Shown: positions 983 to 23,620 of the stretch, piece by piece
Numbering within the stretch: the stretch's first letter is position 1
Layout: each line of letters opens with the position of its first letter
Assembly (NCBI RefSeq): GCF_004010195.1
Contig: NC_057718.1
Span: 78,232,935 to 78,296,934 of the forward strand
Length of the DNA: 64,000 bases
Direction: 5' to 3'
Source: Chiloscyllium plagiosum
Lineage: Eukaryota
Notes under the pieces: model-generated
The model's database searches: none
The model's input: the letters and a program-made list of their open reading frames with translations, nothing else
What the model was told of the DNA's origin: nothing
Translations under genes and position numbers: made by a program

Positions 983-1448
983 ATTGTGGAGGGCTCGATC
1001 GTAACACAGAATATATAGCAAAAATTTGCAGTGTGATGTAACATTACAGGTGATCACCATTACACTACACACACACACTCTCACATGCACACGGACACAG
1101 ATACACACACCCTTATAGACACACAGACTCCCACACATGCACCCCTTCACAGACTTAAGACACTCTGCACTCACTACACACACACACACNNNNNNNNNNN
1201 NNNNNNNNNNNNGGGGGCCAACACCTTCAACATATTGTCTAGCTATCACCATTGTTAACAGCTAACCCGAGAATGCAACTTTAAAAAAAAGGTTTTGTGA
1301 TTTACACATGAAAGAAGTGAAACTATCACTGTATTCTAACAGATGAAAGGCTTAACATACAATCAATTCTTCAATGTATAATTTCAGTTACATCACACTG
1401 CAAATTTTTGCTATAAATTCTGTGTGTTAGAATTGAGCCCTACACTAT

Positions 1449-1483
1449 CACCTGATGAAGGACCGTCGCTCTGAAAGCTAGTG
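1449..1483 (+). ncRNA. Minimal hammerhead motif with a degenerate stem II
   Basis: cac-CTGATGA-A-GGACC-gtc-GCTCT-GAAA-G-CTA-gtg. Confidence 0.6.
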
Positions 1484-1830
1484 TGCTTCCAATTAAACCT
1501 GTTGGACTATAACCTGGTGTTGTGTGATTTTTAACTTTGAACCTTAGTAATGGTGGCGTTCACTCAGGAAGCAGTAAGGCTAAAGAGAGAAAGCTCCCAC
1601 AAAGGCCCGATGTTGTCATATGATTAGTGTCTACGTGCCAATCCTCCATAGCTACACAAATACACAACAGTCACTCATCTCAAAACCTCAATAAACTTAT
1701 AGGCGATACGTGACAACGACGAAAGTCGTGATTTCCAGTAATGTAGCCGAACCTTCAGTAACGCCTGCCGCCCGCCGGATCACACGCGTAACTTCGTCGT
1801 GCCTGAGGCGTGGCCAAGCCCAGCCTCATT

Positions 1831-2119
1831 GTCATGTGACTAGGATGGGGCAGAACTCAGCCTCTCTGAACGATGTGACGACGATAGGGCTGAACCCAGA
1901 CTCGAAGAGTCACGTGAATAGGAGGAAGGGCGAGCACGGCCTCGCCGAATCATGTGACTAGGAGGAGAGGCTCATCCGGCATCGGCGCGTGATGTGACTA
2001 GGAGGTGGGGCTAACCCGGCCCCCCTGAGTCACGTGACCAGGAGGTGGGGCTAACCTGCCCCCGCTGAGTCTTGTGATCTCGGAGGTGGGGTTTACCCGG
2101 CTTCACTGAGTCATGTGAC
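1831..2119 (+). promoter_or_regulatory. Tandem array of eight ~40-bp units, each with a CLEAR/M-box (E-box)-type site followed by a G-rich box
   Basis: 10-mers at 1831 GTCATGTGAC, 1870 ACGATGTGAC, 1909 GTCACGTGAA, 1949 ATCATGTGAC, 1989 GTGATGTGAC, 2029 GTCACGTGAC, 2069 GTCTTGTGAT and 2110 GTCATGTGAC; unit consensus approx. GAGTCAYGTGACTAGGAGGTGGGGCTAACCCGGCCCCNCT. Confidence 0.88.
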
Positions 2120-2195
2120 GGGGGCCACAGGGTACCCGTTGCAGGAGCAGGCCTCGTTAGTATTGTCCGGTGGGAGTCTCTGTTAACGGGTGGAA

Positions 2196-2317
2196 ATGAT
2201 GGCCCGTGTAGTGCCGTTTGGGTCTCTCCGAGCGGTGAAGTGGTTGCTCCTTGCCGTTTGTTGTGTGTGGAGCGGTGCGCAGGCTGACGATGTTCGTGTT
2301 TACCCGGAGCTATGCGG
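2196..2317 (+). CDS. IGF2R: IGF2R coding exon 1: signal peptide and start of domain 1 (MMARVVPFGSLRAVKWLLLAVCCVWSGAQADDVRVYPELC-G)
   Basis: ATG ATG at 2196/2199 inside a CpG island; hydrophobic signal peptide ending in AQA; PELC matches mammalian IGF2R (FPELCSYTWEA); donor GG|GTGAGT at 2318, phase 2, joins exon 2 in frame. Confidence 0.93.
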
Positions 2318-3809
2318 GTGAGTCTGGCCCTGTCACCCCACTGCCCAAGCGGCTCAGCAGCTCCAACCTGCTCTGGAGCTGCTGGTCATTCAATCGCCGC
2401 TGCCTTCCGCTCGCTTTAACCGGGCATCGGGCCTGCTGCCAAGTGTCTGCGTGGAGCCCGGCCGGTACCAAACCAGGAACTGCCCCTGGCGCTGGCTGAT
2501 TAGGAAAAAACAAACTCCGGGAGAGAGCGAGGCGTGTTCGGCTGCTGCTTGGTCATCTTGAGGCGGGATGGGCTGAAAACTCTGTCGTTGAAATCAGTTT
2601 TAGTCAATAAATGGTTTCAGTGGTCAATTTCTCTGCTCTGGCGGGCCTCGTCGTACCTCAGTGAGGGCTATTGTTGGCCTTATCTTTGGGTCAGATGGTT
2701 GTGGGTTCAAAATATCGGTGACAGTTCCAGTGATTTGGCTAAGGTGCTGCCCCTACCCCTTCTCATGAGTGATCCTGTGAGTTGCTTTGAAGAGGATCAG
2801 GCGTGTCATGTGACTTGTCCACTATTTACCACTCACCTTATCGCTAAAATGGATGAGCTGGTCGTTGTCACCTTGTTTATTAGGCCTCGTGAATTGTCTG
2901 TACGTGAATTTGTTTGCTATGTTTGACAGTATAATGCTAACCAAATGCAAAAGCATTTTGTCTGCGAAATGCTGTGCGATGCTTTGCAATCGAGATGCAA
3001 TTATAATATAACTTTCTGACTAAATGCAATTTAGGTGATTTAAGCTGTGTGCTTCAAGTCAATTATAGAGTCCGTACTGTGTGGATGCAGGCCAGTTGAC
3101 CTGTAGAATTCACTCTGACCGTCAAAATGGCTAATCTGCCCAATTTGCACATTCCTGGGCATGATGGGCAATTGAGCATACCAATCCTGCACATCTTTGG
3201 ACTGTGAGGAAACTGGAGCACACAGATGTGTGCCCCCAAGTAAAACCACTCTGGTGGGCTAAATCTGAATAGTTCAATTTCTATAGATGTATAACTTCAA
3301 TTTGACAGATGACTTCCACTTCATCCTCCTCCATTTTTCACTGCCTGTTTCTGCCAACAATTCCTGTGTTATGCAAAAATCTAAAACTAGAGCATAACTA
3401 TTGAATGGTCATCTCTGAATACAGCAGGATCTTGATCATATTAGCCAATGTGCTGAGGAGTTGCAGATGGAGTTTAATTTAGATAAATGCTCTTCAAAAG
3501 GATTCTGGGTAATTAAGATGGAGGATGGGAAAAATGGCTGAGGCTGCTCCTTTTTATTGAGAGACTTTAGGTGTTGGATGCGATTTCTTCAAATTCCTGG
3601 AGCAGCAATTACTGTTTTGTATGCTGTTGTATTGTTTTGGAACTTTGGAAAAGTGGTGGGACCCAGGGAGACAGTGAGGAAAGAGCCTGGTGCAGTTGAA
3701 AAGAGAAGAGTCAAACAAGGACAAAGCAGAAAAGAAGGTAGGATTGATAAATTATTTAAATGCAAGAAGCCAACAAGGAAGCCAACTGGGATATCATAGC
3801 AATACAGAA

Positions 3810-22680: not shown

Positions 22681-23489
22681 AGAATCAAGGCAAGCAAGTA
22701 ATTGTTTCAGGGAATCAGTTGGAAGATTGAATATGCTGTTTGCAAAAATGTTTATATAAAGGTCTAATTTAAGACCTGCTCATTAACCGGAACAAAGATT
22801 TACCTAACTTCAGATTAGATCATGAATATATTCATGTATTAAATGCTTTGCAATGCAAGAACAAAATTCAAATTAGTTTACCATGCTGTTGATTTTATGT
22901 CATTTGTATCCTGCGCACTTCAAAGGTTTGTTCTTAAGCAGACCCTTCCATTTTTAGTCCTATTTTTGTATTCTGGATGTACCAAAGTACTTCAAAGCAA
23001 ATGAATTGCTTATTGACGTGTAGCCACCCTTTTGTAGATAAGTGTAGCAGACAATATGCGAACACAAGTTTGCAAGTTGTTTTGATGGTTCAGGGAAGAA
23101 TATAATCGAGGATGGCAGGGGAGTTACTTATTCTTTGTTTAAAAAAGTTAAGAAATTTTTGTATCCATCAAGGTTTACTCTTCTAAAAGATGGTAGCTCT
23201 TAATGCAGCATTATCTCAATACTGTACTGAAGTAGTAGCACAAATTATACACTGCTGGAATGGAGCTCAAGCTCTAAGTGGGGCAGTCAGTCTAGCTGAC
23301 ACCAAAACCATGTGACTGATCTTGTTTTGTAGTAAGCACTTTGGTTTTAATAGTGGTTTTAATTTAAGAAAGAAAATAGTATGTCTGGTTCCAATTAACT
23401 TTTTAACTCTTAAATGCAAAAGAACCTGGAGTAAAGCAATTCTTTGAAATGCCTTTTCTTTGAGTAATTGATTTTTTAATTTTGTTCAG

Positions 23490-23620
23490 GTACACTTGGG
23501 AGGCGATGGATTCACACAAAGGAATATATTACAAAATAAATCTATGTGCCCCTTTAAATTGTGGGGGTTTGAGTGCTATCTGTGCTTACAGTACTTCACA
23601 AAAAGCCAATCATTCAGTCG
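23490..23620 (+). CDS. IGF2R: IGF2R exon 2 (G-YTWEAMDSHKGIYYKINLCAPLNCGGLSAICAYSTSQKANHSV-G)
   Basis: Acceptor ttttgttcag|; donor |gtaagt at 23621; resembles human YTWEAVDTKNNVLYKINIC...SAVC...HSVG. Confidence 0.96.

Follow-up and report, generated by a model that had tools for sequence, protein, structure and literature searches.

The stretch of DNA analysed here (the window, 64,000 nucleotides) raises the question of whether a row of regularly spaced E-box-like motifs, lying immediately upstream of a shark gene for IGF2R, the receptor that carries enzymes to lysosomes, acts as a promoter element multiplied by tandem duplication. The original prediction, made from the letters alone, described eight phased CLEAR/M-box cassettes forming a lysosomal switch that copy number might tune.

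The gene is, as had been proposed, a shark IGF2R/CI-MPR; it is closest to that of the whale shark. Both downstream exons searched returned CI-MPR chains as their top Protein Data Bank matches (E values of 1e-41 and 2.5e-9), while the Pfam CIMR domain exceeded the cut-off in 1 of 7 pieces and was present at lower scores in 2 others; the exon 1 and exon 2 pieces gave no Pfam match. In a protein comparison that took in proteins of up to 2000 residues, one CI-MPR exon is 94% identical to a CI-MPR-like protein of the whale shark, the other 28 matches lying at 63-77%; the source is probably a carpet shark. Four of the 24 listed sequencing runs were compared (X1, X6, X19 and X21), and contigs of X19 (8292 nt) and of X6 (8209 nt; organism B, RNA by guess) contain the exon 1-exon 2 splice, leaving the genomic sequence at the donor that follows 2317 and resuming with exon 2 letters at 23492, where the acceptor AG ends at 23489. 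Because these contigs splice it to exon 2, the plus-strand exon at 2196-2317, which encodes a signal-peptide-like MMARVV...YPELCG and is followed by a GT donor at 2318, is the first coding exon. Intron 1 measures roughly 21 kb, and the 64 kb of the window take the receptor no further than about residue 350. Many frames in the IGF2R introns (2318-64000) resemble decayed LINE reverse transcriptase.

Upstream of this exon the array is present where it had been placed. Eight GTCAYGTGAC-like 10-mers start at 1831 (GTCATGTGAC), 1870 (ACGATGTGAC), 1909 (GTCACGTGAA), 1949 (ATCATGTGAC), 1989 (GTGATGTGAC), 2029 (GTCACGTGAC), 2069 (GTCTTGTGAT) and 2110 (GTCATGTGAC), at spacings of 39, 39, 40, 40, 40, 40 and 41 bp, and the last of them ends at 2119, which leaves the predicted 76 nt before the ATG at 2196. 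Five of the eight motif-bearing units retain an intact TCAYGTGA, two as CACGTG (one of them the perfect CLEAR palindrome) and three as CATGTG, exactly as had been read; the invariance claimed for TGA within the motif holds and in fact extends to the longer GTGA, kept in 8 of 8. The intact 8-mer occurs 5 times within 1601-2400, whereas 5000 dinucleotide shuffles average 0.05 copies and never exceed 2. At lag 40 the autocorrelation reaches 0.51; the highest value among 1000 shuffles was 0.38. Tandem Repeats Finder, proposed as a check, called a period-40 repeat over the inner part of the array only (1907-2119, 5.3 copies, 74% matches), while an HMM built from units 1-7 recovered all seven at full length together with a 17-nt match to unit 8; across the 64-kb window it found no further copy and nothing else with E < 0.6. 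Since an X1 contig, which is DNA of the window's own organism label (organism A), spans the array gap-free, the array is probably no assembly artefact.

The units derive from one another by tandem duplication, because their spacers are homologous even when the motif is left out. Spacers 1 and 2 resemble spacers 3-7 on motif-free comparison (p at most 0.0013), and the units are pairwise 46-78% alike (22-54% different), so that both the description of the spacers as homologous but diverged and the multiplication of a motif unit by duplication are borne out. The same comparison extends the array upstream, where a 28-base spacer (1803-1830) matches spacers 1-7 with p about 0.002 and alignment places a decayed motif at 1794-1803. 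The first reading had defined units by their motif and therefore missed this motif-less ninth unit (unit 0). Downstream of unit 8 no likeness to the spacers was found (p 0.42). The full array is 1794-2119, nine head-to-tail units with a period of 37-41 bp, which is minisatellite-sized.

All nine units lie on the plus strand. Unit 0 (1794-1830), delimited by spacer match, alignment and motif scan, joins the decayed motif to a spacer with a GC-box-like GGCGTGG at 1807. Units 1-5, delimited by motif scan and HMM, comprise an intact M-box and its spacer (unit 1, 1831-1869), a broken E-box that retains its right half (unit 2, 1870-1908), an intact TCACGTGA (unit 3, 1909-1948), a second intact M-box (unit 4, 1949-1988) and a second broken E-box (unit 5, 1989-2028). 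Unit 6 (2029-2068) carries the sole perfect CLEAR palindrome, unit 7 (2069-2109) has a broken E-box and lies in the probable transcription-start zone, and unit 8 (2110-2119) consists of the motif alone, an intact M-box at which the array ends. GT boxes (GGTGGGG) occupy the G-rich spacers of units 5, 6 and 7 (at 2004, 2044 and 2085), and AP-1-type TGAGTCA sequences overlap the motifs of unit 6 (at 2026) and unit 8 (at 2107). With unit 0 counted, intact sites are present in 5 of 9 units (TCACGTGA in two, the M-box 8-mer TCATGTGA in three), all five with 5'T and 3'A flanks, and 4 of 9 units lack a usable site. What had been called eight CLEAR cassettes is thus one perfect CLEAR palindrome and five usable sites among nine units.

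Another perfect GTCATGTGAC lies alone on the plus strand of intron 1 (2805-2814), outside the array and not a member of it; its first base reads A in X1. A 272-nt X1 contig from elsewhere matches 2840-2875, with a loose end that resembles 2811-2840, and this intronic M-box may border a dispersed repeat. A 20-letter unit pattern had no matches among metagenome contigs, and Rfam over 1200-3300 gave no match near threshold, a single mir-27 hit being at chance level (18.5 bits against 48.5). The folding of 1824-2198 as RNA yields a z of -2.96, which was put down to the tandem palindromes pairing among themselves. Two further structures were considered and set aside: a three-unit higher-order repeat, proposed from the shared CACGTG of units 3 and 6 and the shared GATGTG of units 2 and 5, is unsupported by pairwise identities or trees (adjacent units usually group together in the trees, at low support), and a motif scan found no antioxidant-response-type TGAC/GnnnGC site.

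The surroundings of the array are those of a CpG island (1601-2600, around the array and exon 1), in which the CpG observed/expected ratio is 0.55-1.52 against 0-0.61 upstream and GC content is 0.47-0.62; a motif scan of 1561-2330 found no TATA box. The spliced X19 contig starts at 2104, so that unit 8 falls inside its 5' end, and depth in the raw RNA of X21 (12 reads in all) begins in the bin 2050-2100 with nothing before it. Judged from this one contig end and these few raw reads, no start site being listed, transcription is likely to begin on the plus strand within units 6-8 (about 2058-2113, a zone and not a mapped start), with most of the array upstream. Given where the X19 contig starts, the array is most probably the proximal promoter of IGF2R, set in its CpG island. 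This assignment is weakened by contigs of X6 that run over the array and upstream of it (1745-2319 at a depth of 29 and 1501-1773 at a depth of 17, compared with 90 in the mRNA body, 5.5 in intron 1 and none past 2740). These contigs are strandless, and the upstream signal may come from transcripts that start farther upstream, from divergent (antisense) transcription or from DNA.

Between 1615 and 1815 the flank contains CATATG at 1617, TACGTG at 1632 and 1707 (hypoxia-element-like), CCAAT at 1638 and GC boxes at 1768 and 1807. Farther upstream, two inverted arms (897-1042 and 1387-1542, 86-97% complementary) surround CA-rich sequence with an N gap. This element (850-1551) is edged by a perfect 14-bp direct repeat (850-863/1538-1551) that resembles a target-site duplication, and ends about 250 bp before the array; it may represent a shark repeat present twice in inverted orientation, or else sequence joined at the gap.

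Two parts of the original prediction, phasing and copy-number tuning, concern the geometry of the array. The spacing is regular at 39-41 bp, and in that sense the array is phased; but the sites do not share a helical face, the phase concentration R at 10.5 bp per turn being 0.17 for all eight motifs and 0.05 for the five intact ones. At 10.2 bp per turn R is 0.38, and it is high (0.91) only at exactly 10.0; same-face helical phasing was rejected. Tandem duplication yields regular spacing for free. With regard to copy number, a single X1 contig, gap-free and with 9 substitutions, covers the stretch, and X6 keeps every unit, its three array substitutions all falling in the spacer of unit 5. The two X1 substitutions within the array lie at 2038 and 2059, where the depth is 2.8, so that either may be an error; the former, a T at the last base of the unit 6 palindrome, keeps TCACGTGA intact. 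Outside the array, one X6 contig has a 7-base deletion at 1767, beside the GC box, and X21 reads have a 3-base insertion at 2571. Neither X1 nor X6, the small sample of further sequences covering the array, has more or fewer units, contigs being such that rare variants are dropped. The low likeness of the units argues against an active VNTR and, since units differ by 22-54% whereas the organisms are about 99% alike, the expansion is much older than the split between A and B. The reading of the array as a copy-number dial is unsupported. It is plausible, as the core of the prediction holds, that duplication multiplied a bHLH-ZIP site at this promoter; the claims of eight cassettes, of phasing and of tuning by copy number go too far.

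Our preferred explanation is that the array is the product of an old tandem duplication, a homotypic cluster of E-boxes and M-boxes, together with GT boxes, that would be read by MiT/TFE and USF factors, and we consider this moderately probable. The chief alternative is that the array is mostly a neutral relic, in which one or two working E-boxes (for example those of units 6 and 8) were caught up in a minisatellite expansion and the extra copies are decaying at the background rate, five sites then being intact because the genome evolves slowly and little time has passed since the expansion. The broken motifs in 4 of 9 units and the want of helical phase among the sites fit such a history. Comparison of motif with spacer bears on both explanations. 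Among eight units, pairwise identity is 0.80-0.83 in the motif against 0.60 in the spacer (permutation p 0.004-0.006; Fisher p 0.014), but when unit 0 is included the permutation p becomes 0.049 and the Fisher p 0.14, and in units 3-7 alone the motif (44 of 50 cells) does not differ clearly from the spacer (124 of 150 cells; p 0.26). The predicted excess of motif over spacer conservation thus stands for eight units and fades in the other sets, and the two tests with p 0.14-0.26 favour decay. The conservation is also lopsided. Among eight units the right half-site is retained in 39 of 40 cells, the left in 32 of 40 and the spacer in 165 of 215, so that the left half is kept no better than spacer, as expected of a relic; an E-box requires both half-sites. 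Retention of the right-half GTGA in 35 of 36 cells across nine units counts, conversely, against decay at the background rate.

Neutral simulation gives a similarly divided answer. On spacer-derived trees 0.6-2.6 intact sites are expected, and 0.6-3.4 across all settings, so that the five observed exceed the neutral mean in every one. The probability of at least five is 0.004-0.064 on the spacer tree and 0.027-0.155 on the all-column tree for eight units. For nine units, with the spacer-less unit 8 attached next to unit 7, it is 0.026-0.15, rising to 0.13-0.28 with branches scaled to 0.7; a neutral origin can draw on the rate-varied runs (P 0.06-0.28). Against it, none of the five substitutions within 1831-2119 in X1 and X6 changes an 8-bp core, a result with P 0.29 under uniform mutation, organism B being about 99% alike here and too close for a conservation test. 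Taken as a whole, the comparisons suggest that the array E-box sites may have been under selection, and we regard the neutral relic as possible though rather unlikely.

A second alternative shifts the selected element away from the palindrome, to the GTGAC half-site and its neighbours or to a GT box or AP-1-type site (which we assign to Sp/KLF and bZIP factors, respectively), with E-box binding secondary. The best-conserved 10-column window consists of GTGAC and the next five bases, off the palindrome (0.87 against 0.80), and GGTGGGG in three spacers and TGAGTCA at units 6 and 8 offer candidate sites; but that window was picked post hoc, and TGAGTCA (2 of 9 units) and GGTGGGG (3 of 9) are both rarer than the five intact E-boxes. 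We consider this reading improbable.

The motif can also be read as a start-stop pair, ATG-TGA in units 1, 2, 4, 5 and 8, ACG-TGA in units 3 and 6 and TTG-TGA in unit 7, and the array contains a 38-codon uORF (1845-1961) that shares the frame of the IGF2R start but stops at 1961. A dual code may be imagined in which a cooperative MiT/TFE-USF cluster would govern transcription from a start at the 3' end of the array while the ATG-TGA uORFs would act as a brake on an upstream-initiated transcript. Such a code would explain both the lopsided conservation and the upstream X6 contigs and, if true, would mean that one 8-mer is selected both as binding site and as ribosome brake; we judge it quite improbable. 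Very improbable in our estimate is an effect at the RNA level, with upstream-started transcripts carrying a row of mini-uORFs that dampen translation: ATGTGA in five units (two of them with a broken E-box) suits the lopsided conservation, the X6 contigs over 1501-2319 (at depths of 17-29, where intron 1 has 5.5 and the sequence past 2740 has none) could be such transcripts and the ATG-TGA of unit 8 lies inside the X19 contig, but ATGTGA is necessarily part of every TCATGTGA, units 3 and 6 retain the E-box without an ATG, X19 and X21 have no coverage before the bin 2050-2100, and the strandless X6 signal may be divergent antisense transcript or DNA.

Under the preferred reading, that of a multiplied E-box cluster, an ancestral unit made up of an M-box and a GT-box spacer would have been multiplied long before the A/B split, and the array would by now be too diverged for ready expansion or contraction, with its outer and some inner units decaying. 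The five intact sites would be occupied by USF dimers and by dimers of the MiT/TFE factors (TFEB, TFE3 and MITF). It is fairly probable, we believe, that binding of both kinds at these sites would give basal plus inducible expression, USF driving housekeeping expression and MiT/TFE inducing it when lysosome demand rises. Clustering would lift bHLH-ZIP occupancy, possibly above additive by analogy with paired MITF sites, and the spacing would be a by-product of duplication, neither a helical phasing device nor a copy-number dial.

Published data on mammalian systems are consistent with several of these steps. According to PMC7427332, sites of the MITF type are flanked by a 5'T and/or a 3'A, which sets MITF targets apart from those of MYC, and double 8-bp sites have a median MITF ChIP height of 152 compared with 51 for single sites, for which its authors raise possible cooperativity. 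For MITF binding, values of 2.6, 1.5 and 0.9 nM are given for M-, E- and CLEAR boxes, respectively (PMC6355916); IGF2R is absent from the supplements of that paper. PMC12314853 reports TFEB ChIP occupancy at mammalian Igf2r promoters and induction of Igf2r by FGF18 via TFEB/TFE3 in mammalian cells, and PMC9780427 cites IGF2R among the genes on which USF acts through E-boxes. The lysosomal-switch reading is tempered by the human data, because MITF peaks assigned to IGF2R (listed without positions) go no higher than the 61-70 bin, well short of the 171-190 of LAMP1 and HEXA (PMC7427332, Table S1 as available). The available parts of PMC3826467 and PMC12828906 contain nothing on the IGF2R promoter, and none of the full-text matches listed, a set that leaves subscription journals mostly outside, describes the promoter of IGF2R in a shark.

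The array is a real feature, a tidy version of an established promoter design and not a new type of switch. It shares with CLEAR/M-box promoters controlled by MiT/TFE factors a TCAYGTGA with T/A flanks, here near the probable start of a lysosomal-pathway gene, and differs from them in that its sites are putative binding sites, lie in a nine-unit repeat with homologous spacers and are mostly the weaker CATGTG.

Another counterpart concerns the same gene. The mouse IGF2R promoter is reported to have four E-boxes in two direct repeats, each about 54 bp long, and the shark array, by comparison with these, has more units and a shorter period. If the mouse promoter is indeed built in this way, a repeated multi-E-box IGF2R promoter has already been described in mammals. 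E-boxes in the mammalian IGF2R proximal promoter were reportedly the subject of work by Liu, Mittanck, Kim and Rotwein in 1995 (PMID 8584025) and by Szentirmay et al. in 2003 (PMID 12857727), and USF-type E-box control of the mammalian promoter is also noted, as a citation, in PMC9780427. Many lysosomal genes have one or more CLEAR motifs (PMC10452791).

Finally, a promoter repeat of similar construction is found at an unrelated gene, the TYMS enhancer region (TSER), which consists of 28-bp tandem repeats with USF1 E-boxes (PMC7712088). The TSER resembles the shark array in being a 5'-end tandem repeat with an E-box in some of its units, in which single-base changes abolish the site, but TSER copy number varies between alleles, whereas the number of shark units, which are 46-78% alike, is unchanged in both of the sequences that span them. 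Multi-E-box promoters, TFEB control of Igf2r and E-box promoter repeats are all known and, because all of its ingredients have precedents, the shark array is neat rather than surprising.
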